Origin: Candidatus Micrarchaeota archaeon
GTDB lineage: Archaea; Micrarchaeota; Micrarchaeia; Anstonellales; Anstonellaceae
Direction of reading: 5' to 3'
Assembly: GCA_964458205.1 (NCBI GenBank)
Contig: CAYWFJ010000001.1
Location: 1-45,963, forward strand
Length of the DNA: 45,963 bases
Within the stretch, counting starts at the first letter, position 1; every line of letters starts with the position of its first letter. Below the pieces are notes generated by a model. That model made no database searches and was not told the DNA's origin. It saw only the letters and a program-made list of their open reading frames with translations. Shown in pieces: positions 3,564-31,633 of the stretch. A program made the position numbers and the translations under genes.

Positions 3564-3745
3564 GCTTTTTTGCCAGTGTTTCTATTTATAAAATTATGTA
3601 TATTCTTTATGCCCGTAAACCGTGATTCGGGCAGTGCAAGATGGCGGCGCCTCCAATTGCCCCCTTCTGCATGCCTGGGCAAGCCTCCGGCTCAGCCTCG
3701 ATTTCTGCCTCAGGCAAATCACAGGGTGCTGCGCGATGCCGAATC

Positions 3746-4834: not shown

Positions 4835-4944
4835 ATTTTCCCTCCTATAGTTGACGCAAAGTTGCTTTGCGCATTTGCGAACAATGAATAAAAATGGATT
4901 GGTCGGCTGCCAGTTTTTTGTTTGGCAGCCAACCGGCGCCATCC

Positions 4945-5982: not shown

Positions 5983-6021
5983 AAAACCACCCTTACTCCC
6001 TTTCAGCGGTTTTTTTCAGTC

Positions 6022-6065
6022 GGCTAAAATTAAAAAGGGACCGTCCTGCGAAAGGGGTTCGCAGG
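6022..6065 (-). terminator. hairpin plus T-run downstream of the DUF4139-like gene
   Basis: 8-bp stem CCTGCGAA/TTCGCAGG (6045-6065). On the minus strand it is followed by CCCTTTTTTAATTTT. The same AT-rich run could serve as TATA for the cysteine-rich gene. Confidence 0.4.
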
Positions 6066-6081
6066 GCGGGGCGGTTGCCGC

Positions 6082-7617
6082 CTATTTCGGGGCATCAACC
6101 GGATAGGCTATTCCTGCCATCGCATTGCCGTAATAGACTGGCTGCTCGAAGTAGGTGGCCTTGTAGGAATAGGCCACCACGAGCTTCCCGCCTGCCGGAA
6201 CCACAACTTTCCATTCAAGGCGGTTGTCTGACAGCCTTGCTGCCGGGGCGCTTGATTCCAGAAGCTCGACCTTGTCGGCATAATTCATGCTGTCCCGAAG
6301 CGTCACAGGGGCAGGCTCCTTGAGGCTGTTCTCGATTGCCATCGAAACGGAATACGTGATTTCGCGCCGGTCTGCGGCCGGCTTCTCAGTCGTCTGGTTG
6401 GTTTCCTTCTTTATCTCGACTTGCTGGAGGGGCGCATAGTTCACATGCGCCTCCTTCCCCTCGCCGGTGTATTGCACATAGCCTTCCCCTGCAAACGCGC
6501 CCGATTCGAACACCTTCATTATGCCGGCGGCAATCGGCTTCCCCAGTGTGTTCTTGAGGTTGAGCATCCGCCTGACAGGGCCGTAGCCCTCCCACAGGTT
6601 CTCCTTCTCATATTGGATGCCCGACTCGAAAATCTTCAGGTTCGCCCGCTCGTTTTTCAGGATGGTCGCAGGCTCGGAGAGGGTGTAGACATATTGCATG
6701 CCGGCCTCCTCGCCAGAGAAAACAGGCGCAGCCGAGGGAGCCTGGCCCCCGGCAAGCGCAATCTCCTTCCTCGCGTCGCCCGAAAAATCATAATTGTAAT
6801 ACTGGGCAGCTCCGTTTCTTACGAAATTCGGCTGGCCGACCGCAAGCCTTAGCACGACGTTTCTCCAGTCCTCGCCTGCGTAATTCGAGACCTCGCCAAA
6901 TGCCGCCAGGCGGGCGCTTCCGGATGCCGCGCCTGCCATCTCAAGGTTGTAATTCGGCTGCCAGTTTGCGCCCGATGTCATGTAGCTGAAGAGAAGGTCA
7001 TGCGCCCCAGCGCGATTTGCCCCCATGTAGACTTCCAGCCCGCGCTCGCGCACGGTGCCGTTTTTCTCCTCGGTTTTTTTCGTCTCGGATGCGTTCATGA
7101 GCACGTTCTTAAGCCCGCCGTCCACCACGAGGAGGCCAGCCTGGGTCTCAATGCCGATTTTCCCGCCCGACACCCACAGGAGCTTCCCTGCGGTTTCGCC
7201 GCTTTCAAGCCGCACCACCACCTCCTTGCCGTATGACTGGTTGAGCAGCTCGTCAAACGTCAGGTAGCGCTCGCTTTTCTCGCTTGTGTTCCTTTCCTCA
7301 TCGTACCTCTTCACCCAGTGGACCGAGCCGTCCGCATCCTCCGCCCGAAGCGTGTCAAGTATCGCGCCCTCGGTGAAGTTCGCTATCCTAAGGTGCGTGT
7401 TTCCGGCGCTTGGCACCTCCGCTTTCCCGGAAGACGACACAAACGCCATCCCGTTCGAGTATATGAGGACCGAGTTGACGGCAGACGCCATGCCAACCGC
7501 GCTCTCCGCGCCGGCTCCCGCCTGGGGAATCGCAGTAAAGACCAGGATTGCGAAGATTGCCACAATCGCAAACGCCGCCAAGTACCGATAAATGCCATCC
7601 GATTTCTTATCCGCCAT
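6082..7617 (-). CDS. DUF4139-like secreted/anchored protein
   Basis: N-terminal TM helix (YLAAFAIVAIFAILVF). Central ANWQPNYNLE...GEDWRNVVLRLAVGQP resembles the DUF4139 signature. Start set to ATG 7617, preceded by GAGGTGGA; the track start 7626 is GTG. Confidence 0.65.
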   Translation of the reverse strand: MADKKSDGIYRYLAAFAIVAIFAILVFTAIPQAGAGAESAVGMASAVNSVLIYSNGMAFVSSSGKAEVPSAGNTHLRIANFTEGAILDTLRAEDADGSVHWVKRYDEERNTSEKSERYLTFDELLNQSYGKEVVVRLESGETAGKLLWVSGGKIGIETQAGLLVVDGGLKNVLMNASETKKTEEKNGTVRERGLEVYMGANRAGAHDLLFSYMTSGANWQPNYNLEMAGAASGSARLAAFGEVSNYAGEDWRNVVLRLAVGQPNFVRNGAAQYYNYDFSGDARKEIALAGGQAPSAAPVFSGEEAGMQYVYTLSEPATILKNERANLKIFESGIQYEKENLWEGYGPVRRMLNLKNTLGKPIAAGIMKVFESGAFAGEGYVQYTGEGKEAHVNYAPLQQVEIKKETNQTTEKPAADRREITYSVSMAIENSLKEPAPVTLRDSMNYADKVELLESSAPAARLSDNRLEWKVVVPAGGKLVVAYSYKATYFEQPVYYGNAMAGIAYPVDAPK

Positions 7618-7750
7618 CAAATCCACCTCTCAACCATCATTCCCCCAATCGAGTTATAAACGGTTGCGGTTTCGTTCGGGCGCGCTTCCCGCGGTTTCCA
7701 AAGCCCCCCTGGATGATAGCTTTTTAATATTTGGAACGGCAAGCCCGAAC

Positions 7751-8557
7751 ATGAGATTCCAACCAATCCTTTTCGCGCTGGCGCTCTGCCCCGCCCTTTT
7801 CGCGGCAAGCATACTCTCACCCGTTTCAATCAGGGTGGAGGACGGCATGCGGATTGCGCTTGGGGATGTTGGCCCCGGGCAGACATTCTTCGTAATTGCC
7901 GAGCCGAAGGAGGGGACGGGCGGCAAATACGGGATAGGCGGCGCATACGACCAGCTGGTCGCAACCTCGCTTCCGGAAGGCTGGTCCTCCACCCCCTCCA
8001 GGCTATATGGGAACCCCCTTCAGGCGGAGATAACCGTCCCGAAGGATGCGCAGGACGGGGAATACGATGTCGGGCTTACCCTCTGGGACGAGGCGGGAAG
8101 CGAAGGGCTGGGGCCGAATGTGACATTCACCGTCCGGGCGAAAGTCATCCGGGAAGTGATGGACATGCGGGTTGAGCCTTCGCACGTGTCTGCGGGCGCA
8201 GGCCAGCCGGCAAGGTATGTGATAACGATAATGAACAAGGGAATCGCGAATGACGTTTTCAACATAGGCTCCTCTGGGGTGCGCGATTGGGAGTTCCGGC
8301 GCAGCATCTACATCCCCTCCGGCACATCGAAAACCCTCACTTACGAGGTAGTCGGCAACGAGGAGGCGGATTACCGCGTGAAACTGCTCGCCCGCTCGTC
8401 TTCAAGCGACCGGATAAGCGCTGAGAGGGAAGTCACGCTCCGCGTGAACACCGACCTTTTCTCGGATTTCCGCGCAGTGAACAGGGGCGTGCTCCTCTTC
8501 CCGCTCACAGAGGCGCCGCTTTACTTCATAGTGGGCATCCTTTCGAATTTCATCTAG
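7751..8557 (+). CDS. secreted hypothetical protein with C-terminal hydrophobic anchor (possible Ig-like/CARDB-like repeats)
   Basis: Signal peptide MRFQPILFALALCPALFAAS. Start at ATG 7751, about 20-25 nt after CTTTTTAATATTT. C-terminal LYFIVGILSNFI. The fold assignment is a guess. Confidence 0.55.
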   Translation: MRFQPILFALALCPALFAASILSPVSIRVEDGMRIALGDVGPGQTFFVIAEPKEGTGGKYGIGGAYDQLVATSLPEGWSSTPSRLYGNPLQAEITVPKDAQDGEYDVGLTLWDEAGSEGLGPNVTFTVRAKVIREVMDMRVEPSHVSAGAGQPARYVITIMNKGIANDVFNIGSSGVRDWEFRRSIYIPSGTSKTLTYEVVGNEEADYRVKLLARSSSSDRISAEREVTLRVNTDLFSDFRAVNRGVLLFPLTEAPLYFIVGILSNFI

Positions 8558-8612: not shown

Positions 8613-10235
8613 ATGGCGCGGCTTGATGGCAAACTGCCGTTCTTCTCGCCTAAAAAGCGTGCGCCCCAAAGCGCAGCAAGGCAGGGCGCCGCAAAGGAGG
8701 CGGCGTCCCTTTTCATTGCGAATCCCTCCGCGCAGCTTGAGCGCATAAAGAACGCAATGTGCCGCAAGCACGGCATAACCTATCTCAAGAACTCCGAAAT
8801 ACTCCAATTCGTCCCTCCAACAGATGGGCGCGCCCGCCGCATCCTCCTCAAATCCCCGACGCGCACCCTGTCAGGGGTATCCCCAATCGCGCTCATGCCG
8901 CCGCCCTACCCGTGCGTGGGGCGGTGCGCCTACTGCCCCAAGGGGGTGAACGCCCCGCAGTCCTACACCGGCTTCGAGCCGACCACCATGCGCGCGATAC
9001 AGTGCGGCTATTCCGCGGAAAAGCAGGTCGGGGCGCGCCTGGGCCAGTATTCCCAGCAGGGGCACGGGACCGACAAATGCCACCTCATATTCATGGGCGG
9101 CACCTTCCTTGCCGCGCCAGCCGCTTCCCGCCGCAAATTCGTGAAGGAGGCATTTGACGCGCTCAACGGCTCTGTTTCGCGCACCCTTGCGGAATCGATA
9201 AGCGCGAACGAGACTGCAAGGCACCGCGCAATCGGGGCGACTTTTGAAACCCGCCCGGACTTCGCAGGCGCGCGCGAAGCGGACGAAATGCTCTCACTCG
9301 GGGGGACGCAGGCCGAGCTTGGCGTGCAGTCCCTCTCGGACCAAGTCTACCGAAAAGTCAACCGCGGTCACACGCTTCTTCATGTTGAGCGCGCAACGCG
9401 CATCCTCAAGGACTCGGGCTTCAAGGTCTGCTACCACATGATGCCCGGGCTTTACTCGGGCCCGCGCCAGGATGCAGAGTACTTCCGGCGGCTTTTTTCC
9501 ACCTCGCGCTTCCAGCCGGACATGGTCAAGATTTACCCGGTCCTCGTCCTTCCTGGCACCAGGCTTTACGATGAATGGAAAGCCGGGCGGTTCTCCCCCT
9601 ATGGCACCGAGGAGGCGGCAAAGGCAATCGCCGCTGCTATCAGGCACGTCCCGCCCTATGTCCGAATCCCCCGGATACAGCGGGACATCCCATCCCCCCT
9701 TGTCCTGGCAGGGGTGAAAAGCTCCAACCTGCGCCAAATGGTGGAAGGGCGGCTGCGCGAAGAGGGCGCGGCATGCCGCTGCATACGCTGCCGCGAGGCG
9801 GGAAGCGCAGCCCGCCAGGGCCGAGAATCAAAACAGCTTTCGCTTTCCCTCCTGCGCCAGGACTATTTTGCCTCCGGAGGCAGGGAAACATTCCTTTCAT
9901 TCGAGGATGAGAAGCAGGATATCATTGCGGGCTTCTTGCGCCTGCGAATGCCGGGCAAAAGCCACCGCGCCGAAATCTCGGACGGAACCGGCATCCTCTC
10001 GTCTCTTGTGCGCGAGCTCCATGTTTACGGGCAGGAGGCGTCCATCGGCGAGAAAAGCGAGGGCAAATTCCAGCACAAGGGGCTGGGGCAACGGCTTCTT
10101 CGCGAGGCGGAGCGCATAACGAAAAAAGAATTCGGCATCGGGAAAATCTCCGTCCTCTCAGGCGCAGGCGCTCGCGGCTATTACCGCAAGCTTGGCTACT
10201 CGCTTTGCGGGCCTTACATGCAGAAGAGGGTCTGA
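8613..10235 (+). CDS. elp3: tRNA uridine(34) modification radical SAM/GNAT enzyme Elp3
   Basis: Radical SAM cluster motif CVGRCAYCPKG and C-terminal GNAT motif HKGLGQRLLREAE. Start uncertain: TTG 8571, GTG 8577 or ATG 8613. Confidence 0.85.
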   Translation: MARLDGKLPFFSPKKRAPQSAARQGAAKEAASLFIANPSAQLERIKNAMCRKHGITYLKNSEILQFVPPTDGRARRILLKSPTRTLSGVSPIALMPPPYPCVGRCAYCPKGVNAPQSYTGFEPTTMRAIQCGYSAEKQVGARLGQYSQQGHGTDKCHLIFMGGTFLAAPAASRRKFVKEAFDALNGSVSRTLAESISANETARHRAIGATFETRPDFAGAREADEMLSLGGTQAELGVQSLSDQVYRKVNRGHTLLHVERATRILKDSGFKVCYHMMPGLYSGPRQDAEYFRRLFSTSRFQPDMVKIYPVLVLPGTRLYDEWKAGRFSPYGTEEAAKAIAAAIRHVPPYVRIPRIQRDIPSPLVLAGVKSSNLRQMVEGRLREEGAACRCIRCREAGSAARQGRESKQLSLSLLRQDYFASGGRETFLSFEDEKQDIIAGFLRLRMPGKSHRAEISDGTGILSSLVRELHVYGQEASIGEKSEGKFQHKGLGQRLLREAERITKKEFGIGKISVLSGAGARGYYRKLGYSLCGPYMQKRV

Positions 10236-10256
10236 GCCTCCCGGTTGCAAGCCAAT

Positions 10257-11186
10257 CTATCCAATTATCCTTTCCACTCTCGCACTGCCAATCGCCCTTG
10301 GCATGGCTTCGGGCAAGAAGAGCGGCAATTCCTCGCCAATCCTGAGCGGCAACGGTGCAGACAGCTCAATGTCGCATAGCTCCCCGTTTTTCTTCCCCTT
10401 GCAGGCGACAAACTTCAAGCCCCACAACACGAAGAACTGGGCGCTTTCGAGGTTTCCCCTGTAGAATTTCGTGGAATCCGCCTTCGCGGATATTTTCGTG
10501 CATGAAGGGAATTTCTCCTCGCATGCCAAATCCCCCTTGCCCACGATGTCAGGCACGATTCCCTTGAGGCACAGCCCCACCCGCGAGCCGGCTTCCGCCT
10601 CATCCGTGTTTTCATCCTGCACCTGTATCGACTTTATCTCCGCGGAATCGCCTGACGGCAGGAAGGCAAGCTGCTGGTGCACCTTCACAGCGCCCTGCTG
10701 CACGATGCCGAGCGCCACCGTGCCAACCCCTTTCACCGGAAAGCACGAATCTATCACCACTTCAGTTTTCCCCTCGGCTTTCCTGGTGCTTGGGATGAGC
10801 AGGAGCCTTTCGCGAAGCGCATTTGCGTCCCCCTCGAAAAATTCATACGATTGGACGCCTGCCGCCTTGATGAGGGGCTCGATGTCGGATTGCCCGACCT
10901 TGTCCGCAATCACCAGCAGGCGCTTTTTGAACACCGCGCACGCGACAATCATTTCCCCCGCGAATTTGTCTATTGCCTGCGGGCGAAGGTAGGCGGCATC
11001 GCAAAGCGAGAGCGCGTAAAGGAGCGGCTGTATTTTCTCAGGGTATTTGCTCGGATGATAAATGCAAAGGACGCTTTCCCCCTCTTTGCAGTTGTATATG
11101 GCGAAATCGCTCTCGCTTCCCTTCTTGCCGATTTTCCTTGCGAATTCCGCGTCCGCCTCAAGCGCCGCGATATGTATGTGCTTCAT
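10257..11186 (-). CDS. EF-Tu domain-2-containing translation-GTPase-like protein with degenerate G domain
   Basis: Beta-barrel domain-2-like segment (FPVKGVGTVALGIVQQGAVKV...AEAGSRVGLCLKGI). No GxxxxGK(S/T) P-loop in the N-terminal domain. Start at ATG 11186 (MKHIHIAAL). Confidence 0.55.
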   Translation of the reverse strand: MKHIHIAALEADAEFARKIGKKGSESDFAIYNCKEGESVLCIYHPSKYPEKIQPLLYALSLCDAAYLRPQAIDKFAGEMIVACAVFKKRLLVIADKVGQSDIEPLIKAAGVQSYEFFEGDANALRERLLLIPSTRKAEGKTEVVIDSCFPVKGVGTVALGIVQQGAVKVHQQLAFLPSGDSAEIKSIQVQDENTDEAEAGSRVGLCLKGIVPDIVGKGDLACEEKFPSCTKISAKADSTKFYRGNLESAQFFVLWGLKFVACKGKKNGELCDIELSAPLPLRIGEELPLFLPEAMPRAIGSARVERIIG

Positions 11187-11244
11187 GGCAACCACCAGTC
11201 CTCTATGGGTAAAACAATTAAAACGGTGCAGTGCGCACTTCCAT

Positions 11245-11517
11245 ATGGTTCCCATGGATGATTTGACCCTCTGGATTGGCGCATTCGGGGTTTTCATCCT
11301 CCTTGCTGCGTTCTTCCTCAATACATTCGGGCGCCTTAGGGCAAACAGCATTACATATGCAACTGCGAACCTTATCGGGGCTGCACTGAACTGCTGGGCG
11401 TCCTATCAGATAGACTACGCCCCATTCGTCATTCTCGAGGCGGTTTGGGCGCTTGTCGCGCTTGTTGCCCTTGCGGGAATCTTTGCCTCAAAAGAGGAAT
11501 ACCGATTGCTTTATTAA
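11245..11517 (+). CDS. small (90-aa) three-helix membrane protein
   Basis: Start at ATG 11245. Hydrophobic segments LWIGAFGVFILLAAFFL, LIGAALNCWASY and FVILEAVWALVALVALAGIF. Confidence 0.5.
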   Translation: MVPMDDLTLWIGAFGVFILLAAFFLNTFGRLRANSITYATANLIGAALNCWASYQIDYAPFVILEAVWALVALVALAGIFASKEEYRLLY

Positions 11518-11538
11518 TGTGTCTATTAATAAAATATC

Positions 11539-12378
11539 ATGGCAAACTTTAAGGGAGCATTACAGTCATCCATACCTATGATTCCTCGTGCTGAGCGCTT
11601 GCGGATGAGCCAGGCGGTTCGCCGCTACAAGGAAGTCAGTAGCGCCATAATCAAATTTGACCAGGTTTTCGATTCATGGGATGCGCAAGTAAAGAGCAAT
11701 TATAGGCGGGCCATGGCTGCCGGCACCATGGATGCCCGGAACGAATTCTGCAATTTTTTTCTGGCTAGCGAAAAAGAGGTGAAGGACCATGCATTTAAGG
11801 TTGCGCATGACCTTCAACCCGGCTTGGAGGAAAAGGAGATGCTGCTTAAAGGGCTCCAGGTATCTGCGCCCGGCAAGGTATCGAGGACCATATTTTCAGG
11901 CATACTGGACGATCTCTCAAGCATACTTGGCAAGTTTAAAAAGAGGCTAGATTTTGTGGAGGCCGCAATCGGGGCTTCATCATTATTGGCTGTTTATGCT
12001 GCCGCATCCGGTCTTTGGCCATTGGCCACAGCAGGGGCAATTGTTGCGGGGTGTTTGGGCTATTGCTGCTTCAAGTTGGCGGATGCAAGAAATAGGATTG
12101 AAAAATACCTGGCAGAGCACACAGGCAATTCCAAATCGTTTGACAAAACAATAGGGCTGATTAAAAAAGCGATGACAACGAAACCTGGCGGGCTGTTCGC
12201 CTATGTTTCCACAATGAACCAGGAAGCGCTCAGGGACTACTTATTCGAAGGAACAGGCATTACAGTTCCGCTTGCAAGGGAATATGCATCTTCAAACGGT
12301 GGTCTGGACGAAATTCACGACACTACCCGTATTATAGAATTCAAGCCTTTGAAAAAAAGCGGAACAGAATCCGATTAG
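11539..12378 (+). CDS. hypothetical protein with central TM hairpin, compositionally AT-richer than neighbours
   Basis: 279-aa ORF preceded by the AT-rich TTATTAATGTGTCTATTAATAAAAT. Central AAIGASSLLAVYAAASGLWPLATAGAIVAGCLGYCCF. No recognisable family. Confidence 0.6.
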   Translation: MANFKGALQSSIPMIPRAERLRMSQAVRRYKEVSSAIIKFDQVFDSWDAQVKSNYRRAMAAGTMDARNEFCNFFLASEKEVKDHAFKVAHDLQPGLEEKEMLLKGLQVSAPGKVSRTIFSGILDDLSSILGKFKKRLDFVEAAIGASSLLAVYAAASGLWPLATAGAIVAGCLGYCCFKLADARNRIEKYLAEHTGNSKSFDKTIGLIKKAMTTKPGGLFAYVSTMNQEALRDYLFEGTGITVPLAREYASSNGGLDEIHDTTRIIEFKPLKKSGTESD

Positions 12379-12475: not shown

Positions 12476-12649
12476 TGCGACCGCCGGGATTTTCAGCCCC
12501 CATTTCTTTTGGGGTCGAAAGACCTTTTCTTCCGGGAAGAAAAGGGATTTCATTTGAACCCGGCTCGCGAGATTTAGGCGGCCAATTCCGCATAAATCGC
12601 CAATCAGCCTTGGCAATCTCGAATCCTAACCAGGCTAGACTACGGTCGC
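12476..12649 (-). tRNA. tRNA-Gly(GCC) with two introns (37 nt at 37/38, plus-strand 12574-12610; 63 nt in the T-loop, about 12489-12551)
   Basis: Hand-folded from the minus strand: GCGACCG TA GTCT AGCCTGGTTA GGAT T CGAGA TTGCCA[37 nt]A TCTCG CGAG CCGGG TTCAAAT[63 nt] CCCGG CGGTCGC A. All four stems pair, giving a 74-nt mature length. The T-loop junction is ambiguous by 1-4 nt because AAAT occurs on both sides. Confidence 0.8.
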
Positions 12650-13689
12650 AGCAAAGCCTCATTTGATGGGTTTTGTTTTAAAACGCTTGCGCTTGCCGCC
12701 ATGAAATAGGCGCAGGAGAAGGCGTCCCCAAGCCCCACGGTCCATTTGGGCGATTCGAGGAATCTTGCTTCATAGCCTTCAAGCTCAGGCAGCGTTGCGC
12801 ACCTGCCGTTTTCAGCCTTGAACGAGGCGCACTTTTCCGCGAACGCCATCGCCTCCTTGTCAAGTTTCCCCGCTGGCAGCACCTCCTGCCTTTCAGGCAT
12901 GTGGAACAGGACCGCATTCGCCTCCTGCGCCAGTTCCGATAAGTCGCAGCCGAACGAGGAAAGCTCGGTGTCATTCAGCCCGACCATGTCAACTGCAGGG
13001 AACAGCCTTTCCCGCACCGCATCCCGCACAGCCTCGGACTGGAATTCGCCAAGCTCCGCAAAAACGCAAAGGCCCGGGTTTATCTTTTTCCAGCGGAGGA
13101 TTTCATCAGTGAATTTGGCGAGCCTGTCCGGGGTTTTGAGGAGATGGAATCCGCCCACGAACGCCTTGCTGGCTGAGGGCAGGGCGGAATCGGCCGCCCT
13201 CTGGAAATCCTCCTCAAGATGCATGGGCAGCGGGTCATATGAGGCGATGAAGCGGGTGCGGCTTTCCTTGTGCTCGAACACGAAATGGTGCGCGCTTGGC
13301 GCCTGCGATGAAAACCCGCCAGCCGGAACAAAGCCGTCCTTTCCCGCAAGCAGTATTTTCTCCCTCTTCGAAAAGCGGGACAGGAGCTCGGAGTTGGCGA
13401 AATTGCTGTGGAGGAAGCATTCAACCCCAAGCGCGGACGCCTGCTCTGCCGCATTCCCTGCCTGCCCCCCGACAATCGAGCAATCGAACCTGATTTTGGA
13501 AAGGAGGGCGGCGCAGGTTTTCGCGTCGATGAGCGTTTCCTTCTGCCTGCCCTCGGCAAACGAGCCTGACATCTGCGAGGCGAGGGAAAACGATGCGGCG
13601 TCAATAAGCCCCATGTCCCCATCGCCTACGGCCTTGAGGTGGTCTATGTTCGCGTTGAAGGCGAAAACCGCGCGTTTCGGGAGTTCCAT
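12640..13689 (-). CDS. ADP-dependent sugar kinase family protein (glucokinase/phosphofructokinase-like), short 349-aa form
   Basis: AFNANIDHL, GGQAGNAAE, VGLNDTEL (NxxE) and C-terminal TVGLGDAFS motifs typical of the ADP-PFK/GK family. The last 10 nt overlap the tRNA-Gly(GCC) gene. Confidence 0.72.
   Translation of the reverse strand: MELPKRAVFAFNANIDHLKAVGDGDMGLIDAASFSLASQMSGSFAEGRQKETLIDAKTCAALLSKIRFDCSIVGGQAGNAAEQASALGVECFLHSNFANSELLSRFSKREKILLAGKDGFVPAGGFSSQAPSAHHFVFEHKESRTRFIASYDPLPMHLEEDFQRAADSALPSASKAFVGGFHLLKTPDRLAKFTDEILRWKKINPGLCVFAELGEFQSEAVRDAVRERLFPAVDMVGLNDTELSSFGCDLSELAQEANAVLFHMPERQEVLPAGKLDKEAMAFAEKCASFKAENGRCATLPELEGYEARFLESPKWTVGLGDAFSCAYFMAASASVLKQNPSNEALLRP
12676..12683 (-). 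promoter_or_regulatory. TATA-like TTTTAAAA about 27 nt upstream of the tRNA-Gly(GCC) 5' end, inside the 3' end of the kinase CDS
   Basis: Read directly. The spacing matches archaeal TATA-to-TSS distance. Confidence 0.4.
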
Positions 13690-13777: not shown

Positions 13778-13782
13778 ATTAT

Positions 13783-13855
13783 GCGGCTGTAGTCCAGCCT
13801 GGTAGGATCTGAGCTTCCCAAGCTCGAGACCCGGGTTCAAATCCCGGCAGCCGCA
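13783..13855 (+). tRNA. tRNA-Gly(CCC), intron-less
   Basis: GCGGCTG TA GTCC AGCCTGGTA GGAT C TGAGC TTCCCAA GCTCG AGAC CCGGG TTCAAAT CCCGG CAGCCGC A. Canonical cloverleaf, 73 nt, no encoded CCA. Confidence 0.92.
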
Positions 13856-13951
13856 TCCCATTCATAATCTGGGCATATGTCCGCCGCTGGCATCATCATT
13901 TCCCCCGAAGTTTCGCAACAGTTTATAATGTTCAGTCCTCAATCGTTAAGC

Positions 13952-14569
13952 ATGGGCAGGCTTGGCTTCATATTCTCCCTGGACGCATTCATCGCATTCA
14001 CCCTTATCATGGTCACGATAGGCTTCCTGGTATTCACAATCGGCACGCCCAAGCCGTTCTATTCATCCCTTGAGCAGGCGCACCAGCTTGCATACGACAC
14101 CCTCAACGTCCTTTCCACTTCCTCTGATGCCCAGGGAAACCCGACTTATCTTGAGCAGATTCTCAGCGGCGGGGATGAAGGCACGATAATGAAGAAGGTG
14201 GCTGGCGGCGACTCAGTGAATTACCCGAACGCGATAATCCCGCAGGGCTATGGCTACCGGCTTGAGTCATACAACTTCAACACAGGCTCCTGGTCGCCTT
14301 TTTACGATGCGGGAACCCATGCATCAAACGACCGCTTTGGCAAGCGCTTTACCAAGGTCCAGGCTTCGGCAACAACATTCGCCTCGCTCTATTCCACAAG
14401 CCCGCGAAACCCGGGCCAATCCCCTTACTGCTATCTTTCCTGTTTCGGCTACCAGTCGCCTGGGAATTACCAGTCGCCCTGCAATGCAACCCCTTGCGAC
14501 ATGCCGATTTCAAATTTCCTCCCGGGCAACAGCTCGATAAGCCTCATAAGGTTGGTCGTTTATGCATGA
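13952..14569 (+). CDS. prepilin-like protein 1 (class III signal peptide)
   Basis: MGRLG/FIFSLDAFIAFTLIMVTIGFLVF. ATG 13952 lies about 24-30 nt after TTTATAA (13922-13928). The track ORF starts at 13877. Confidence 0.65.
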   Translation: MGRLGFIFSLDAFIAFTLIMVTIGFLVFTIGTPKPFYSSLEQAHQLAYDTLNVLSTSSDAQGNPTYLEQILSGGDEGTIMKKVAGGDSVNYPNAIIPQGYGYRLESYNFNTGSWSPFYDAGTHASNDRFGKRFTKVQASATTFASLYSTSPRNPGQSPYCYLSCFGYQSPGNYQSPCNATPCDMPISNFLPGNSSISLIRLVVYA

Positions 14570-16226
14570 TTCCAAAACGCCATCATCGGGACGCAGGCGC
14601 GGCTTCTTCTTCACAGTGATGGCGCTTGCCATCCTTTCATTCATGCTGCTTACCGTCCAGCTATGGGTGAGGGTATTCGAGCAGTCGGACATCCGGGCAG
14701 CCGAGCGCTTCAAGGGCGAGGCAATGCGGCAGGTGCTCGCCACCCTCTCGGACAAGGCGCTTTCGGATTTTGCGAACGCATCGTCGTTTTATGCCACATA
14801 CAAGCTGGCAAACTACACTTCTTCAAACGGAGGGCTTGCGAGAAGCACCGCATTGGATGCCCAAAATCCAGAAACCGGGCGGGTGGAGGAGAACATACGC
14901 CTCCTAATGCTCAACGGAACATCGCAATCGGATATGCTGCCTCCAATAGGCTATTCCGAATCCGAGAAGGCATCATACACGCTTGAATCCTGGCAGGGGA
15001 AAATACAGCAGGCGGCGAACCTGATGGGCTTCAACACCAGCTTCTCGCCGCCGCAGAACTTCAAGGTCAAGCAGATTGACCCTTGGGCAGTCGGGATTTA
15101 TTTCGAGACCGAAATGAACATTTCAGACCTGGAAGGAACAATGCGCCAGTCAAAGAGGCTCAAGGCAAACTCAAGCTTTTCAATAAACGGATTTGTCGAC
15201 CCGTCTATAATCCGGGGGTATCTGTCATACCATCCTCTTTCCACCCTTGCAGGGGTGCCGCAGAAGCAGATTTTCAGGCATGCGGCGTACGATGAAGCCT
15301 CTGACCTCGCCCCGATAAAATACGACGGCACAAGCCGCAGCGGGGGCAACGGCTGGTTTTTCGGCCCGATAACCGAAGATTACCCTGAGGACATGAATGA
15401 GAGCGAAATAGGCAGGCTTTCGCAGTTCGTGCTGGTGCACCCATACGATGTGAAAATGCCCACCTATGCCAATTATTACGGGGCGGTCATAGTGACCAGC
15501 ACCCCCCGCTCGGTGGGGGACGTTTATTCCGAAGGCTCCTGCACCTACAACCGGACGCAGCAGGCGGACTGCATCAATTGCCTTGTGGAATATTCATCGA
15601 CAATGCCGGGATGCAGCAAGCGCCACGAGTTCACAAATACCATAGACCGGCCGATGCTGCTCGGAGGCAACGGGATAAGCAGCATTCCAACCGTGAGCCG
15701 CGCGGACGAAGACGGCTACAAATACGTCCTTATCGACAACGAGCACGGCAGCCTGGAAGACGTTGAGCTGACCGATTACCACCGCGTCTGGGACGTCACG
15801 AAAATCCGGGACATGGCAATCTGCGGATTCTACGTGCACGAGCCTACGGCGCCGTCTTTCTTCCAAAGGATGCTTGCAGCCCCGTTCTCGACTCCAGGCA
15901 TCAACAGCTCGGCATACGGGATAGAATCCTTCGTGGTGGGCAAGTGGGCCGGCGGGGCGGACGATTACCTGGGTGCAAATGCGCCGCACGCGCTCTACTC
16001 CCGCCTCGACTCTGAATTTTTTACAGGGGTCTCTGGCAACACCTTCAGGGTAAAGGGCATGATGGGCTGCAAGAGCAAGGAGATGTGTGCATGGACGGCG
16101 GGCGGCAACAATGCGACAAAAGAGGGCGTCGGTGTGTTCCGCCTGGCCCAGGATGCGGTTAGCCGCTACGGGCTCTCTGAAATAGCATGCGGGTTTCCTG
16201 GCCAGCAATCCGCCCAGTGTGAATAA
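14562..16226 (+). CDS. large (554-aa) prepilin-like protein 2
   Basis: N-terminus ...SSGRRRG/FFFTVMALAILSFMLLTV. Its start overlaps the upstream stop (ATGCATGA). The globular part is not recognisable. Confidence 0.7.
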   Translation: MHDSKTPSSGRRRGFFFTVMALAILSFMLLTVQLWVRVFEQSDIRAAERFKGEAMRQVLATLSDKALSDFANASSFYATYKLANYTSSNGGLARSTALDAQNPETGRVEENIRLLMLNGTSQSDMLPPIGYSESEKASYTLESWQGKIQQAANLMGFNTSFSPPQNFKVKQIDPWAVGIYFETEMNISDLEGTMRQSKRLKANSSFSINGFVDPSIIRGYLSYHPLSTLAGVPQKQIFRHAAYDEASDLAPIKYDGTSRSGGNGWFFGPITEDYPEDMNESEIGRLSQFVLVHPYDVKMPTYANYYGAVIVTSTPRSVGDVYSEGSCTYNRTQQADCINCLVEYSSTMPGCSKRHEFTNTIDRPMLLGGNGISSIPTVSRADEDGYKYVLIDNEHGSLEDVELTDYHRVWDVTKIRDMAICGFYVHEPTAPSFFQRMLAAPFSTPGINSSAYGIESFVVGKWAGGADDYLGANAPHALYSRLDSEFFTGVSGNTFRVKGMMGCKSKEMCAWTAGGNNATKEGVGVFRLAQDAVSRYGLSEIACGFPGQQSAQCE

Positions 16227-16228
16227 GC

Positions 16229-16675
16229 GTGGTGCCTATGGACAGCAAAAACAACCGCAAACGTGCGCAGGCAGGCGCGGAAATGCTTATTCTCGTGGGC
16301 TTTGCCCTTGTGTTCATAATCCCCCTTGCGCTTCTCCTGCTTTCGCTTTCAGGCACCGAGCTTGGCAAGACCGCAGTTTCGCAGGCGAAAATCAGCGCGC
16401 GCTCTATTGCAAACGAGGCGGGCGAAGTTTACCTCCAAGGCCCGGGCGCAAGAAAATCCATAGTGGTCAACTACCCTGAAGGGATAAGGGACGCGAAGCT
16501 TGAGGGGGGCCTGGTGGTGCTGTCCATGGAATCGGACGGCAGGCTCCAGGACATCGTCAGCGCAACATTCGCAAACATTTCCGGGAACCTCTCGGGCAAA
16601 AGGGCGTCCGGCCTTCAGAGGATAAGCATGGAGTATGTCTACCCTGGCGATTATGTGAATGTCACATACGGGTGA
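16229..16675 (+). CDS. prepilin-like protein 3
   Basis: ...NRKRAQAG/AEMLILVGFALVFIIPLALLLL. GTG 16229 or ATG 16238, 2-11 nt after the upstream stop. Confidence 0.7.
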   Translation: MVPMDSKNNRKRAQAGAEMLILVGFALVFIIPLALLLLSLSGTELGKTAVSQAKISARSIANEAGEVYLQGPGARKSIVVNYPEGIRDAKLEGGLVVLSMESDGRLQDIVSATFANISGNLSGKRASGLQRISMEYVYPGDYVNVTYG

Positions 16676-17198
16676 AAATGTGCAAGGCAGGCTCAATTCG
16701 AAAACCAGCGCATTCCGCGCCCAGGCCGCAGTGGAGCTGATGTCCTATGCCGCATTCTTCCTTCTCATACTGGTTGCAACAATAGCAATCTTCTTCCAGA
16801 CTCAGTCCCAGGAGACAACGCGCGCGGAAAACGCATACGCGCAGGAAATCGCGTACGGGTTTGCCGACCACATAAGGACGGCATTCATTGCCGGAAGCGG
16901 GTTTTCCGAGAACTTCACCATCCAGCCAAGCATATTGGGCAAGCCATACAGGATACTTGTCAGCGGCTACGGGGCTTCCCCTGCATCGGTTGAGACGGGA
17001 ATTGTGTATGTTGAATGGCAGGGGCCGGGCGGAAACGCGTCTTTCTCCGCCCCGACAGTGACTGCGGCGTATGGCGTAACAACCTACGGCCAGTTCATAA
17101 CACATCCCCCCGGGAATTTCATAGTCATTGATTCGGAATACGGGCAGAGTTTGCTCATGAACAACACAAATGGCGTGATAAGAATAAGCAAGGGATGA
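16659..17198 (+). CDS. prepilin-like protein 4
   Basis: ...SAFRAQAA/VELMSYAAFFLLILVATIAIFF. ATG 16659 overlaps the upstream gene by 17 nt; the alternative is GTG 16678. Confidence 0.7.
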   Translation: MSHTGENVQGRLNSKTSAFRAQAAVELMSYAAFFLLILVATIAIFFQTQSQETTRAENAYAQEIAYGFADHIRTAFIAGSGFSENFTIQPSILGKPYRILVSGYGASPASVETGIVYVEWQGPGGNASFSAPTVTAAYGVTTYGQFITHPPGNFIVIDSEYGQSLLMNNTNGVIRISKG

Positions 17199-17202
17199 GC
17201 GC

Positions 17203-17766
17203 ATGGATTTTAGGAAGGGACAGTATTTCTCGTTTGACGCGGTGGTTGCCACCCTGATAATGGTGCTGGCGTTCACCTCGCTGGTGGGCTACTGGTTCGG
17301 CGCGCAGGCGGTAATCGATGAGCGGTCCAACTCCATGCATACGGACTCGCTTCGCGTGGCGGATTCGCTTCTTTCCCCCGGCGTGCCCCAGAACTGGGAC
17401 TCGCCACCAATCGGAACCTCCAATCCTCTTGACGGCGTGAAGCAGCTCGGGCTTACCAAGAACTTCACACATGAGCTTGATTCTGGCAAGCTTTCCGCGC
17501 TAAACGGCCTTGTCGGGACCGGCATGGCAGACCGCGCGGCATTCGAGGCAAACTATGAAAAGTTCCGAAAGCTCCTTCGCGCAGGCTCGGAATGCTATGT
17601 GGTGATAGAGCGGACTGACATGCTCATTGCCCCTGAGCCTTACCAATTCGGCCGCTCCTACTACGGGTCCAGCCCAAGCGCGGTGGCAGTCGCGCACCGC
17701 GGAGCCACGCTTGACGGGCATCCGATGAGCGTGAAAATCTTCCTCTGGAGAAACGAGTCAGGCTGA
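17203..17766 (+). CDS. prepilin-like protein 5
   Basis: MDFRKGQ/YFSFDAVVATLIMVLAFTSLVGYW. Starts 4 nt after the upstream stop. Confidence 0.72.
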   Translation: MDFRKGQYFSFDAVVATLIMVLAFTSLVGYWFGAQAVIDERSNSMHTDSLRVADSLLSPGVPQNWDSPPIGTSNPLDGVKQLGLTKNFTHELDSGKLSALNGLVGTGMADRAAFEANYEKFRKLLRAGSECYVVIERTDMLIAPEPYQFGRSYYGSSPSAVAVAHRGATLDGHPMSVKIFLWRNESG

Positions 17767-17789: not shown

Positions 17790-19547
17790 TCACTCGACAG
17801 TAACCGACTTGGCAAGGTTCCTCGGCTTGTCGGGGTCGCGGCCGAGCTTCACAGCCATATGGTACGCAAGAAGCTGCAGAGGCACCGCGTATATGATGGG
17901 GATTGCGGCTTTTGGAACCTCTGGCATCAAAAAGCCGGTGCCGCCCGATTTCGCAATCGCATCCTTTCTGTCCGAGAACACCACCACGCTTGCGTTTCTT
18001 GCCTTGCACTCCTGTATGTTGGACAGGGTTTTGGGGAGCGGCTCGCCGGATGGCGCAAGCGCGAGAACCACGACATCCTTCTCAAGGAGCGACAGGGGCC
18101 CGTGCTTGAGCTCGCCTGCGGCATAAGCTTCCGCATGGAGATAGGTTATCTCCTTGAGCTTGAGCGCGCCCTCAAGCGCCGAGGGGAACGCAAGCGACCT
18201 CCCGATGAAAAAGAAATCCCTGTGCTTCACAAGCTCGGATGCCATCTTCTCTATTTCGGAAGAGCGCGCAAGCATGTTCTCAATGTCAAGCGACAGGCGC
18301 GAAAGCGAGGCAAGCTCCCCCTTTTTCCCTCCAAGCCCAAGGGCGATTTTCACAAGCACCGCTATCTGGCAGGTGAAGGATTTCGTGGCGACAACGGCAA
18401 GTTCCGGCCCCGCGGCAATCATCACGTTCGCATCCGCTTCGCGGTAAAGCGAGCTTCCCACCGCATTCCCCACGGCGATTATCTTCGCCCCTGACTTTTT
18501 CGCAAGCCTCACGGCGGAAAGCGTGTCGGCGGTTTCCCCAGACTGGCTGATCGCCATCACGAGCGTTTCCCTGCCGGTTCTCGCATATGCGAACTCGGAG
18601 CCGATAACGACGTCGCACGGGATTGCAAGGCGCGACTGCAAGAGCTCCTTTAGCACCAGCCCGGCGTAATAAGATGTGCCGCATGCAACTACGGTGAGCC
18701 GCCCGTGCTTTTTGATGAGCGACACGGCCGCACCCACATCAGCGGACAGGGCTTCGCGGATTTTTCCCTGCTGCTCGCTTATCTCCTTGAGCATGAAGTG
18801 CGCGTATCCCCCCTTCTCAGCCATCCCGGCAGTCCAATTTATCTTCCCCTCATTCCGCTTGGCAATACGCCCTGCCGCATCAACAACCGCAAAGCCTTCC
18901 CGGGTCATCCTCGCGCAGTCGCTGTCTTCAAGATATGCAACCTTCCTCGTGTACGGGAGAAGCGCCGGCACGTCGGATGCGCAGAACATCTCACCCTTAC
19001 CGATGCCGACCACGAGCGGCGGGCCGTTCCTTGAAATGTAAATCGCCTCTTCCCCTTCGTGCATCGCCACAAGCGACCAGGAGCCGGACAGCCTTGAGAC
19101 TGCCCTCCTGAAAGCCCCAAAGAAATCGCCTCCTTCCGCAGCCTCATCCTCCACAAGGTGCGCGATAACCTCGGTGTCGGTATCCGACTCGAACCTGTGC
19201 CCCTTCTTAAGAAGTGCCCCCCTGAGGGCGTCGTAATTCTCAATGACCCCGTTATGCACCAGGAATATCTTCCGCTTCGAGTCGGTGTGCGGATGCGCGT
19301 TTTTCTTCGTGACCCCTCCATGGGTCGCCCATCGGGTGTGCCCGATGCCCAGCCTTCCCTCCAGCCCCAGGAAGTCCCTTTTCTTGTGGATGTCTTCCAG
19401 CCTTCCAACATCCTTTATGGCCGAAATCCCGCCGTTCATGGTTGCGATGCCTGCCGAATCGTACCCTCTGTATTCAAGCGTGCGCAAGGCCCCAAGTATC
19501 ACTTCAGAAGCTTTCCGGTATCCGATGTAGCCGATTATCCCGCACAC
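17790..19547 (-). CDS. glmS: glutamine--fructose-6-phosphate aminotransferase (isomerizing)
   Basis: CGIIGYIGY N-terminus and SIS-domain motif SQSGETADT. Start placed at the second GTG (19547) so that the catalytic Cys follows the initiator Met; the track start 19556 is also GTG. Confidence 0.9.
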   Translation of the reverse strand: MCGIIGYIGYRKASEVILGALRTLEYRGYDSAGIATMNGGISAIKDVGRLEDIHKKRDFLGLEGRLGIGHTRWATHGGVTKKNAHPHTDSKRKIFLVHNGVIENYDALRGALLKKGHRFESDTDTEVIAHLVEDEAAEGGDFFGAFRRAVSRLSGSWSLVAMHEGEEAIYISRNGPPLVVGIGKGEMFCASDVPALLPYTRKVAYLEDSDCARMTREGFAVVDAAGRIAKRNEGKINWTAGMAEKGGYAHFMLKEISEQQGKIREALSADVGAAVSLIKKHGRLTVVACGTSYYAGLVLKELLQSRLAIPCDVVIGSEFAYARTGRETLVMAISQSGETADTLSAVRLAKKSGAKIIAVGNAVGSSLYREADANVMIAAGPELAVVATKSFTCQIAVLVKIALGLGGKKGELASLSRLSLDIENMLARSSEIEKMASELVKHRDFFFIGRSLAFPSALEGALKLKEITYLHAEAYAAGELKHGPLSLLEKDVVVLALAPSGEPLPKTLSNIQECKARNASVVVFSDRKDAIAKSGGTGFLMPEVPKAAIPIIYAVPLQLLAYHMAVKLGRDPDKPRNLAKSVTVE

Positions 19548-19562
19548 GAAAATCACGTTTCC

Positions 19563-23363: not shown

Positions 23364-23551
23364 GATGGGGCTTCGCTGCCACCAAATAAAAGTCTTCTGC
23401 TTTCCCCAAACGCAAAGCAGGGATTGGGGCGGGCCTGGCAATTCGCATAATGCGGGGCATCCCCCCTTTCAGGCGCCGAACGACTGCAATCGGCTTTAAA
23501 ATACTTGGTCTTGTAATGGGGGAACAATTGTTTTTACTTGGAGGTGAAACA

Positions 23552-24394
23552 ATGGCTGTTAAGGAAGGCGGTGCATCCGCACTGGAAAGAGGGGAATACG
23601 TGGTCGGCCTGGCAATACTGATTGCCGCATGCCTCATCTCTTTCTCGGTTTATTACGGCGCGCAAGGCGTCTCAAGCTCGGTTGACAAGCTCAAGCTTAC
23701 CGTCAATATCCCTTCGGGCGCGGCGCAGGCGCAAGTGCCCGCGCAGCCCGAAACGCCATCTGCCCCTGCGGCTGTGAAAATCGCAGCCCCTGACCTGACG
23801 GGCGCGGCGTTCCAGGGCAAAGCCAGCGGAAAAGTCGTGCTCTTGGAATACTCCGATTTCGAATGCCCATTTTGCGGAAGGGTCCAGCCCACTTTGGCCC
23901 AGCTAAAGTCGGCGTACCCGGACGCGAAGTACTATTTCAGGCACTTCCCGCTTTCGTTCCACCAGTATGCGCAAAAATCCGCGGAAGCGGCGGAATGCGC
24001 GAACAAGCAGGGCAAGTTCTGGGAGATGCACGACATGTTCTATAAGAACACTTCCGCACTTTCAGTTGAAGATGCCAAGGCCCACGCCGCAGCCCTTGGG
24101 CTGAATACGGCTGAGTTCAACGCCTGCCTTGACAGCGGGCAGACCGCCTCCGCGGTCGCTGCTCAGATGCAGGAAGGCGCATCTTTCGGAATCCAGGGGA
24201 CACCCGGCTTCCTGATCTACTCAAGCACCGCAAAGGCAGGGCTTGACGCGAAGCTGTCGCCCATCGTTGCCGAGCTTACTTCGCTCGGAGTGGATGCCAC
24301 CCTGGTGGATGTAAATGGCGCGGGCAAGGGGATAGTGTTCGCAGGGGCGCTGCCCTATGCAAACTTCCAGGCTGTGATGAACGCCTTCAACTAA
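23552..24394 (+). CDS. membrane-anchored DsbA-like thiol:disulfide oxidoreductase (CPFC)
   Basis: ATG 23552 is preceded by GGAGGTGA. TM helix VVGLAILIAACLISFSVYY. Thioredoxin-fold motif LEYSDFECPFCGR. Confidence 0.75.
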   Translation: MAVKEGGASALERGEYVVGLAILIAACLISFSVYYGAQGVSSSVDKLKLTVNIPSGAAQAQVPAQPETPSAPAAVKIAAPDLTGAAFQGKASGKVVLLEYSDFECPFCGRVQPTLAQLKSAYPDAKYYFRHFPLSFHQYAQKSAEAAECANKQGKFWEMHDMFYKNTSALSVEDAKAHAAALGLNTAEFNACLDSGQTASAVAAQMQEGASFGIQGTPGFLIYSSTAKAGLDAKLSPIVAELTSLGVDATLVDVNGAGKGIVFAGALPYANFQAVMNAFN

Positions 24395-24411: not shown

Positions 24412-24470
24412 GGCGGCTTTCTCTGAAAGCCGCCCCTCTCCTTTTATTCTTTCTTTTCTCTTCTTTCTTT
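24412..24470 (+). terminator. 9-bp hairpin followed by a 36-nt pyrimidine/T-rich tract
   Basis: GGCGGCTTT ctctg AAAGCCGCC (24412-24434), then CCTCTCCTTTTATTCTTTCTTTTCTCTTCTTTCTTT. Confidence 0.5.
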
Positions 24471-24480
24471 GGTGCGTTTA

Positions 24481-25149
24481 ATGGCGAAAACCAGGAAATC
24501 CGCAAAGGGAAGGGGAATAACCGGAAGGCGAATTAGCCGGAAAATCCCGTCTGCCGCCCAATCTTCCGGTTTGCAAGCTACCAATCCCTCTTCAAGTGAA
24601 AGCAGCCCCTCATTTGGCACGCTTATCATAGTGGCAGCATTAATCCTGGCAGCCGTGTTTTTCATCATATCCGGCATGCTTGGCGGAAGCGCCGGGCAAA
24701 CAAAGGCAACGGTAATCTCGGGCATGCCGCAAGAGCTTCTGGAAAAAGCCGAGCTCGCCAAGAATGTGGAAATCCGCGCAAACGGCTCAACGGCAACCGC
24801 CAAGCCTGCGGCCCAGCCCCTTCCAGGCAAGGAGGTGGTGGTGGATTTCCTCTATGCCGACTGGTGCGGCTACTGCTCGAAAATGAAGCCGATTGTCGCA
24901 AAGGTGGCATCGGAGATGCCGGCCGGCCGCTTCGAGATTCGCTACTGGAACGAGAACGCGCGCGGAACGAACAGCACCGTTGCAGGCATCTATTCCGACT
25001 ATTCAGCAAAAGGCTATTTCAAGGGGTACCCGACATTCGTTGCGAATTGGAATGACACGCTCGCAGGGGCGGTGCCGGAATCCGAATTCCGCGCGTGGGT
25101 ATGCGGGCAGTTTGCAGCACCGCTTCCTGATGCGTGCGGCGCGAACTAG
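24481..25149 (+). CDS. membrane-anchored thioredoxin-like protein (WCGYC)
   Basis: ATG 24481. TM helix FGTLIIVAALILAAVFFIISGML. Active-site context DFLYADWCGYCSKMKP. Confidence 0.7.
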   Translation: MAKTRKSAKGRGITGRRISRKIPSAAQSSGLQATNPSSSESSPSFGTLIIVAALILAAVFFIISGMLGGSAGQTKATVISGMPQELLEKAELAKNVEIRANGSTATAKPAAQPLPGKEVVVDFLYADWCGYCSKMKPIVAKVASEMPAGRFEIRYWNENARGTNSTVAGIYSDYSAKGYFKGYPTFVANWNDTLAGAVPESEFRAWVCGQFAAPLPDACGAN

Positions 25150-31068: not shown

Positions 31069-31107
31069 ATTCGCGCATTCGCGGCACACCCTGCAAGCCT
31101 TTGTGGC

Positions 31108-31533: not shown

Positions 31534-31633
31534 ATTGGCGATTCCGCGCGCAAGCAATATATGGGTTGCCATCCGCTGCCAAAAAAGGTTTTCAAAATGC
31601 CGCATCCGCAAGACGGGCGGCCCTGCTTTGCCA

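Follow-up and report, generated by a model that had tools for sequence, protein, structure and literature searches.

The Epd pili of Methanococcus maripaludis comprise the minor pilins EpdA–D, the major pilin EpdE/MMP1685, the peptidase EppA and the EpdL/J/K machinery, and their prepilins are processed at RA/Q (EpdA) or KG/Q (EpdB–E) sites, with Q at +1 and E at +5 (PMC4371748; PMC3875500; here and below a slash marks the processing site). Archaeal prepilins are recognized by G, A or S at −1, a charged residue at −2 and a hydrophobic (H) domain that lies after rather than before the processing site (PMC4371748; PMC3875500), the charged −2 residue being critical for the archaeal peptidases (PMC4371748). 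Modules of ATPase and TadC genes in archaea commonly serve pilin sets that are encoded in trans (PMC4858521). The micrarchaeon Mia14 ('Ca. Mancarchaeum acidiphilum') has two type IV pilus (T4P) systems and one FlaK-like peptidase, and its genes MIA14_0252–0258 encode an ATPase, a TadC protein and five class III pilins (PMC5498576). Here we describe a run of five pilin-like genes, g1 to g5, in a stretch of 45,963 nucleotides (nt) from a Candidatus Micrarchaeota archaeon (assembly GCA_964458205.1, contig CAYWFJ010000001.1, positions 1 to 45,963; 'the window'). The five genes probably encode a conserved minor-pilin set of Micrarchaeia, for the priming or the tip of a type IV pilus, whose assembly machinery would be encoded in trans.

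Archaeal pilin sets apart from their ATPase, multi-gene minor-pilin sets, signal peptides with Q+1 and E+5, and T4P in Micrarchaeota are all already known. What is new is the definition of the five-family module, whose order is fixed and whose conservation is phylum-wide, together with its paralogy to an ATPase-linked set and a large g2 family that has no structural analogue. The five genes, and a sixth pilin-like gene elsewhere in the window that went unmentioned in an earlier note on this DNA, are the following (aa, amino acids):

g1, 13952–14569, + strand: pilin-like protein of 205 aa, N-terminus MGRLG/FIFSLDAF, D at +6, four conserved cysteines in the globular part
g2, 14562–16226, + strand: pilin-like protein of 554 aa, N-terminus ...RRRG/FFFTVMALA, at least eight conserved cysteines, 10 N-glycosylation sequons
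g3, 16238–16675 (ATG start) or 16229–16675 (GTG start), + strand: pilin-like protein of 145 or 148 aa, N-terminus KRA/QAGAEMLILVGF, Q+1, E+5
g4, 16659–17198, + strand: pilin-like protein of 179 aa, N-terminus FRA/QAAVELMSYAAFF, Q+1, E+5
g5, 17203–17766, + strand: pilin-like protein of 187 aa, N-terminus MDFRKG/QYFSFDAV, Q+1, D+6
Sixth pilin-like gene, 31634–32146 (listed open reading frame 31634–32332), − strand: TTG start, N-terminus MRG/QGATEYLMLLGAVLVV, 170 aa, six cysteines, Q+1, E+5

The earlier note had reported a five-gene run at 13952–17766, and all five open reading frames (ORFs) are indeed present on the + strand and tightly packed. The 8-nt overlap that it gave for g1 and g2 is there (ATGCATGA at 14562–14569), and the other junctions are a gap of 2 nt between g2 and g3 (11 nt if g3 starts at the ATG at 16238), an overlap of 17 nt between g3 and g4 and a gap of 4 nt between g4 and g5.

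Each of the five proteins carries the basic leader (5–21 residues in the window), the G or A and the hydrophobic helix of ~20 residues that had been claimed for it. There is one predicted transmembrane (TM) segment per protein, at the N-terminus (hydropathy 2.1–3.1 in the window), and the H-domain directly follows the site (best 19-aa hydropathy 1.85–3.1). By alignment of orthologs the predicted sites in the window are RLG/FIFSLD (g1), RRG/FFFTVM (g2), KRA/QAGAE (g3), FRA/QAAVE (g4) and RKG/QYFSFD (g5). The cleavage points first proposed for g1 and g2 agree with these, whereas those for g3, g4 and g5 had been put 1–3 residues too far downstream (after QAG, QAA and KGQ); we judge them misplaced because of the ortholog alignment and of the Epd sites RA/Q and KG/Q. 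The orthologs come from 27 Micrarchaeota loci that contain the module, which gave 26 sequences each for g1 and g2 and 27 each for g3, g4 and g5. The residue at −1 is G or A in all five window proteins and in 133/133 orthologs; position by position, the families show:

g1 orthologs: G/A at −1 in 26/26, K/R at −2 in 15/26, F at +1 in 23/26, D at +6 in 26/26
g2 orthologs: G/A at −1 in 26/26, K/R at −2 in 21/26, F at +1 in 24/26, D/E anywhere from +1 to +20 in 0/26
g3 orthologs: G/A at −1 in 27/27, K/R at −2 in 23/27, Q at +1 in 27/27, E at +5 in 27/27
g4 orthologs: G/A at −1 in 27/27, K/R at −2 in 23/27, Q at +1 in 27/27, E at +5 in 27/27
g5 orthologs: G/A at −1 in 27/27, K/R at −2 in 27/27, Q at +1 in 27/27, D at +6 in 27/27

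In the window itself the −2 residue is R in g2, g3 and g4, K in g5 and L in g1 (which has R at −3), and a rule-based check for class III signals is passed by g2–g5. The class III (prepilin-type) pattern proposed from the bare sequence thus holds, given the conserved [KR][GA] followed by Q or F, the H-domain in the 26–27 orthologs of each family and the match to the Epd sites.

The locus resembles the Epd pili in having several co-encoded minor pilins, a separate small major pilin (here a candidate, the sixth gene) and short leaders. The sixth gene shares the Epd-type site (RA/Q or KG/Q, with Q+1 and E+5) with g3 and g4, and the site of g5 is KG/Q. In the related loci described below (L037, L039 and L040) the ATPase gene comes with two genes of the TadC type. 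Unlike the Epd prepilins, g1 and g2 have F at +1, and g1 and g5 carry D+6 within an FS(L/F)DA motif. The window set is, moreover, separated from any peptidase and ATPase (Mia14 being reported with a single FlaK-like peptidase), and it gives no significant sequence match to a curated family, PF04021 staying below threshold. MIA14_0252–0258, compared here by its description, belongs to the same phylum and likewise has five consecutive class III pilin-like genes, but its pilins adjoin the ATPase and TadC whereas the window set stands alone among metabolic genes.

The order g1-g2-g3-g4-g5 is identical in 27/27 Micrarchaeota loci; the wider neighbourhoods vary by lineage and consist mostly of core genes (ribosomal proteins, tRNA synthetases, LSM). 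Because the five families keep the same order in every locus and their N-terminal motifs are near-invariant, the module is no chance run of membrane anchors; it is conserved and apparently belongs to the core genome. Within it, g3 and g4 are full-length paralogs (hhalign 97%), and g1 and g5 share the N-terminal domain only, with the FS(L/F)DA motif that differs from the Q..E type. For g2 there are 105 homologs, one of them 100% identical, and those with a name are nearly all from Candidatus Micrarchaeota, Micrarchaeia or Anstonellaceae; the small-genome archaeon that had been guessed from the sequence is accordingly one of the Candidatus Micrarchaeia. An exact look-up of the window's g2 product returned no record. 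For g5, HMMER run in full with the family profile returned 1679 clusters (at 50% identity) at E ≤ 1e-3; ten of these were looked up by exact sequence, and three carry the names Micrarchaeota or 'Ca. ainarchaeum' and a fourth is a 'hypothetical protein'.

No ATPase, platform protein or peptidase had been recognized in the 46-kb window, and this is borne out: Pfam scans of every large ORF find no T2SSE, T2SSF or Peptidase_A24, and when the window was searched by tblastn with Micrarchaeota-type T2SSE and T2SSF queries every match had E > 0.1. Its Pfam content is archaeal housekeeping and metabolic (POR, GDH, ELP3, NurA, PTH2, OapC, folate and purine enzymes, DsbA-like thioredoxins and an NHL-repeat protein). 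The module lies beside an ATPase in 0/27 loci, and when 597 kb of related loci were scanned for the T2SSE Walker A motif, an ABC transporter was all that came up.

In relatives, however, four of the five proteins have homologs that are encoded directly beside T4P-type machinery. In L037/L038 the gene order is g3-like, a LamG protein, g4-like, g5-like, g1-like and a gene in the g2 position, followed by T2SSE, T2SSF and T2SSF; the L037 order, g3-g4-g5-g1-g2, can be had from that of Micrarchaeia by circular permutation. The g5 homolog beside T2SSE in L037 is found at 3.9e-18 in a library-wide search and at 7e-27 in a local search, the g3 homolog at 1.5e-13 by hmmsearch (hhalign 96%), the g1 homolog at 3e-7 (hhalign 94%) and the g4 homolog at 6e-7 (hhalign 80%). 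The nearest relatives of the L037 ATPase (52–64% identity) are overwhelmingly from Micrarchaeota, Micrarchaeia or Anstonellaceae. Two Micrarchaeia loci, L039 and L040, are syntenic; in each, T2SSE and two T2SSF genes are preceded by four pilin-like genes, and the g5 homologs beside T2SSE (5e-12 in L039, 9e-14 in L040) are full-length, as is that of L037. On the 185-kb contig JBGGHI010000013.1 a stand-alone module (L005) and the ATPase machinery (L039) are ~24 kb apart; as the two share a contig, at least one genome holds both an ATPase-linked set and a stand-alone set. At the genome level the link to T2SSE and T2SSF thus comes from the adjacency of g1, g3, g4 and g5 homologs in L037, L039 and L040 and from JBGGHI010000013.1, that is, from relatives and not from the window's own genome.

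The missing machinery is less remarkable than the earlier note implied, because trans-served pilin sets are documented (PMC4858521) and because a relative has its machinery ~24 kb away. The euryarchaeal trans-served sets (Makarova, Koonin and Albers 2016, PMC4858521; for example Haloferax PilB3C3 with the PilA pilins) likewise have their ATPase/TadC and pilin modules at separate loci, and likewise include a larger 'minor pilin' of variable length beside smaller ones. Their arCOG02911 minor pilin is, however, all-beta and Ig-like (PMC4858521), in contrast to g2, which is predicted to be mixed alpha/beta and has no analogue in the PDB.

As a separate observation, the LamG protein inside the ATPase-linked pilin set of L037 (5959–8796, + strand; 945 aa, Laminin_G_3) has a Sec-type signal peptide. 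It is reminiscent of the LamG/DUF2341 adhesins described for archaeal T4P of clade 1 and of LamG proteins reported from Mia14.

In the minor-pilin reading that we favour, each protein would be made with a class III signal peptide, its N-terminal helix would insert into the membrane, and a prepilin peptidase of the FlaK/PibD/EppA type would trim it after the [KR][GA] site. An ATPase of the FlaI/PilB type and two TadC-type platform proteins would then lift the subunits into a filament, with peptidase, ATPase and platform all encoded elsewhere in the genome. The five proteins would not form the shaft; as a complex of minor pilins they would prime assembly and finally sit at the tip or the base of the fibre, in the manner of the bacterial GspH-I-J-K or FimU-PilVWX proteins and of Methanococcus EpdA–D. 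The shaft would be built by a separately encoded small pilin, for which the sixth gene (31634–32146, − strand) is the window's candidate.

The bacterial sets offer a mechanistic analogy, not membership. GspH-I-J-K and FimU-PilV-W-X(-E) are, like the module, operons of four to five pilin-like proteins, with a proposed role in starting assembly and capping; they differ in that no sequence or fold similarity to them was detected and in that two members of the module have their acidic residue at +6. Like GspK and PilX, g2 is the one large member without the conserved acidic residue, which g1, g3, g4 and g5 keep invariantly and which g2 has in 0/26 orthologs. Because the helix of every other member has an acidic residue and its own has none, we assign g2 (large, rich in cysteine and with its 10 sequons) as the likely capping or adhesive subunit. 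The earlier note had already put forward the 554-aa protein as a possible tip or adhesin subunit; its size is as stated, and the cap or adhesin role would follow by analogy.

Structure prediction by AlphaFold gave a g5 model (predicted local distance difference test score, pLDDT, 87.7) in which a helix of ~50 residues (7–56) is joined to a four-stranded antiparallel sheet; the predicted fold is a pilin-like lollipop, the general shape of pilins. The g2 model (pLDDT 87.9, predicted TM-score 0.81) has a 48-residue N-terminal helix (14–61) and a large mixed alpha/beta body, and Foldseek finds no match to it in the PDB at E ≤ 1e-3. What Foldseek did return from the PDB for these two models had low TM-scores throughout (RNA polymerase beta, ribosomal uS3, NTF2-like) and was taken as noise. 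Sequence profiles of the PDB give nothing at E ≤ 1 for g2 and g5, and only unrelated matches at E ≥ 0.3 for g1, g3 and g4; relatives of GspK, GspI, GspJ or PilX were found neither for g2 and g5 by Foldseek nor for any of the five families by PDB sequence profile.

In Pfam the gathering thresholds are 23.7 bits for PF04021 (Class_IIIsignal/DUF361, a model of 27 positions) and 27 bits for DUF7262, DUF7266 and DUF7287. There is no Pfam match for g2, and PF04021 matches neither g3 and g4 at E ≤ 1 nor their orthologs at E ≤ 0.1. Orthologs of g1, g4 and g5 match the uncharacterised archaeal families DUF7262, DUF7266 and DUF7287 weakly, all below the gathering thresholds: DUF7262 in 7/26 g1 orthologs (best E 0.0027; window g1 13.9 bits), DUF7266 in 4/27 g4 orthologs (best E 1.8e-4) and DUF7287 in 11/27 g5 orthologs (best E 1.8e-5). 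The window's own proteins match these families at E = 0.079 at best. As the scans of orthologs gave E-values, the comparison with the threshold in bits was direct for the window's g1 and for four DUF7262/DUF7287/DUF7289 matches that had bit scores (13.9–18.7). On the ATPase-linked g5 homologs the DUF7287 matches cover the full length of the profile. A tblastn search of PLSDB plasmids with g5, aimed at haloarchaeal DUF7287 loci, returned nothing relevant, and a literature search by DUF numbers found no paper. The earlier statement that no family is recognized in the globular parts thus stands, as Pfam gives sub-threshold DUF matches only and the PDB no relative in either sequence or fold. The module has 1.46 N-glycosylation sequons per 100 aa, compared with 0.29 in 17 cytoplasmic enzymes of the window (a five-fold difference), and this enrichment, together with the conserved cysteines of g1 and g2, fits extracellular, disulphide-bonded glycoproteins.

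Several points weigh against the minor-pilin assignment. g1 is, from its sequence, the weakest signal-peptide case of the five and may stay uncleaved, because in the window it has L in place of a charged residue at −2 and only 15/26 of its orthologs have K/R there. None of the five proteins reaches a curated Pfam threshold, that of PF04021 included, and Foldseek with the g2 and g5 models retrieves no solved pilin or minor pilin (TM-scores ~0.25). Among the ATPase-linked sets no gene is significantly homologous to g2. Neither the window nor ~650 kb of sequence from related loci shows a peptidase gene when scanned for multi-TM GxGD proteins, and the presence of a prepilin peptidase is presumed from the literature on another micrarchaeon. 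The priming or tip role, finally, is suggested by analogy with GspHIJK/FimU-PilVWX and the Epd minor pilins.

The best-surviving alternative is that the proteins build a short pseudopilus or a membrane-proximal platform, similar to the pseudopilus of the type II secretion system (T2SS) or to the Sulfolobus bindosome, which displays or secretes other surface proteins; the bindosome assembly pilins BasABC are a precedent (PMC4371748). Such a structure would not differ from a minor-pilin set in its N-terminal features or in its need for T4P-type machinery, and the placement of a single-copy, phylum-wide module amid housekeeping genes (ribosomal proteins, tRNA synthetases) fits a constitutive envelope function. 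Yet no substrate-binding proteins with class III signals are seen nearby, and a separate small Q+1/E+5 pilin, present in the window and beside the module in L021, suggests that a shaft is built. Although these points discriminate weakly between the two, we regard the pseudopilus or platform as improbable.

Somewhat more doubtful still is the view that some or all of the five are uncleaved, N-terminally anchored surface proteins, FlaF/FlaG-like or surface (S)-layer-binding, in a non-filament envelope complex that needs no ATPase. The invariant G/A at −1, the Q+1/E+5 of g3 and g4 and the Q+1/D+6 of g5 are hard to explain for a mere anchor, and homologs of g1, g3, g4 and g5 sit inside T2SSE/T2SSF operons. 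The −2 position of g1, uncharged in the window and in 10/26 orthologs, would suit an anchor, as would the FS(L/F)DA motif by which g1 and g5 differ from the Q..E type and the lack of an adjoining ATPase or of a T2SSE Walker A motif in the loci scanned above. An arCOG 'Pilin/Flagellin, FlaG/FlaF family' is also listed for DPANN genomes, but FlaF and FlaG are themselves part of a T4P-type machine.

That the set serves a DNA-transfer or conjugation-type apparatus instead of an adhesive pilus, in keeping with the speculation of Golyshina et al. on DNA exchange via T4P in Mia14 (PMC5498576) and with L036, where a g3-g4-g5-g1-g2-like set (2750–8498, − strand) lies head-to-head with VirB4/TraG-like (DUF87, P-loop_TraG), TraC-like and DUF8186 genes (9111–11764, + strand), is very unlikely, as L036 stands by itself, genes of this kind adjoin the module neither in the window nor in any of its 27 orthologous loci, and the orthologous module sits in a core-genome context and not on a mobile element. 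L036 does suggest that some paralogous pilin sets ride on, or serve, a conjugation-like element.

The minor-pilin reading can be taken a step further, to a stand-alone module, kept apart from the ATPase-linked paralogous set, that is a dedicated host-contact tip complex serving an episymbiotic way of life, with g2 as the host-binding adhesin, one ATPase/TadC machine being shared by two alternative minor-pilin sets that give different fibre tips; we put this forward as a speculation and think it rather unlikely in this specific form.

The sixth gene, which begins MRG/QGATEYL (its N-terminus is also given as MRG/QGATEYLMLLGAVLVVALVG), is a candidate major pilin or shaft subunit encoded apart from the module. 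It matches PF04021 (Class_IIIsignal) at E = 0.0016 and 18.7 bits, under the cut-off of 23.7, and in L021 a homolog lies 1.7 kb from the module. An ORF on the + strand (31103–31975) that overlaps it and has no Pfam match was rejected as spurious. Other ORFs with a loose combination of [KR][GA] and a TM segment were not accepted as pilins either: the one at 23588 is a DsbA-like anchor, those at 42277 and 6003 have lipoprotein-like N-termini, and the one at 33084 is an antisense ORF.

The 5′ end of the sixth gene, with ~30 nt upstream of it, is duplicated in tandem (32122–32177 and 32221–32276; 56 nt, 77% identity, 99-nt spacing), with the remains of a third copy in the interval (~32180–32204). 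Read in frame, the repeats give several 'LRGQGAIE' pseudo-cleavage motifs. Similar duplicated in-frame 'RGQAxIE' segments precede g3 and g4 in L021, g3 in L018 and L002, and g4 in L014 and L022. The duplication at the sixth gene could be a recombination scar, have a part in regulation or encode a long leader.

The module is flanked by an ADP-dependent sugar kinase (12640–13689, − strand) and GlmS (17790–19556, − strand), and two further features lie immediately upstream of g1:

tRNA-Gly(CCC), 13782–13858, + strand: tRNA gene immediately upstream of the operon
TTTATAA, 13923–13929, + strand: TATA-box-like element ~26 nt before the g1 ATG, read from the sequence; a candidate archaeal promoter of a leaderless operon transcript

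Position 13952 is the likely start of g1, because its orthologs begin 3–8 residues ahead of the motif and because TTTATAA stands at this distance upstream. A longer g1 ORF from 13877, which is 19 nt past the tRNA-Gly, was rejected, as the orthologs start at the MxxxG/F motif. Six other loci (L002, L007, L015, L016, L021 and L023) likewise have a tRNA-Gly gene close to the module, in varying position and orientation. In many relatives a gene for an AAA+ protein of ~470 aa with a LonB-like N-terminus directly follows g5 (13466–14884 in L002 and 13114–14541 in L007; also in L009–L011, L013, L017, L019–L021 and L023). No such gene was found in the window by tblastn, and GlmS occupies the place after g5. 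L035 repeats the five-gene order (187, 431, 135, 149 and 163 aa), and a gene for a KaiC/RecA-like ATPase (PF06745, 223 aa; 7320–7991, + strand) lies there 2.6 kb downstream of the stand-alone module, beyond two genes for glycosyltransferases. A role in regulating T4P has been proposed for ATPases of the KaiC family.

Elsewhere in the window the following genes may concern the cell envelope:

23450–24394 and 24469–25149, + strand: two thioredoxin/DsbA-like membrane-anchored proteins, a side observation
4945–5982, − strand: lipoprotein-like, cysteine-rich DUF5885 protein, likely surface or envelope
6082–7626, − strand: DUF4139 protein with an N-terminal TM segment, likely surface or envelope
26772–28700, − strand: NHL-repeat beta-propeller, likely surface or envelope
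40676–42142, − strand: 488-aa protein with TM segments at the N- and C-terminus and no family, likely surface or envelope

The two DsbA-like proteins would suit the formation of extracytoplasmic disulphides in the cysteine-rich g1, g2 and sixth pilin.

The module provides annotation rules for five families now labelled 'hypothetical', of which g5 alone accounts for ~1700 clusters at 50% identity, and it defines a conserved surface set that includes the large g2, with a confident predicted structure and no solved analogue. If the reading is true, the set would be a natural system for the study of archaeal minor-pilin complexes, which are poorly understood even in model species. Micrarchaeota are tiny, host-dependent archaea, and we know of no described molecular basis for their attachment to their partners. 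Should the set indeed prime or cap a type IV pilus, its five proteins would be concrete candidates for the structure by which these cells contact their hosts.

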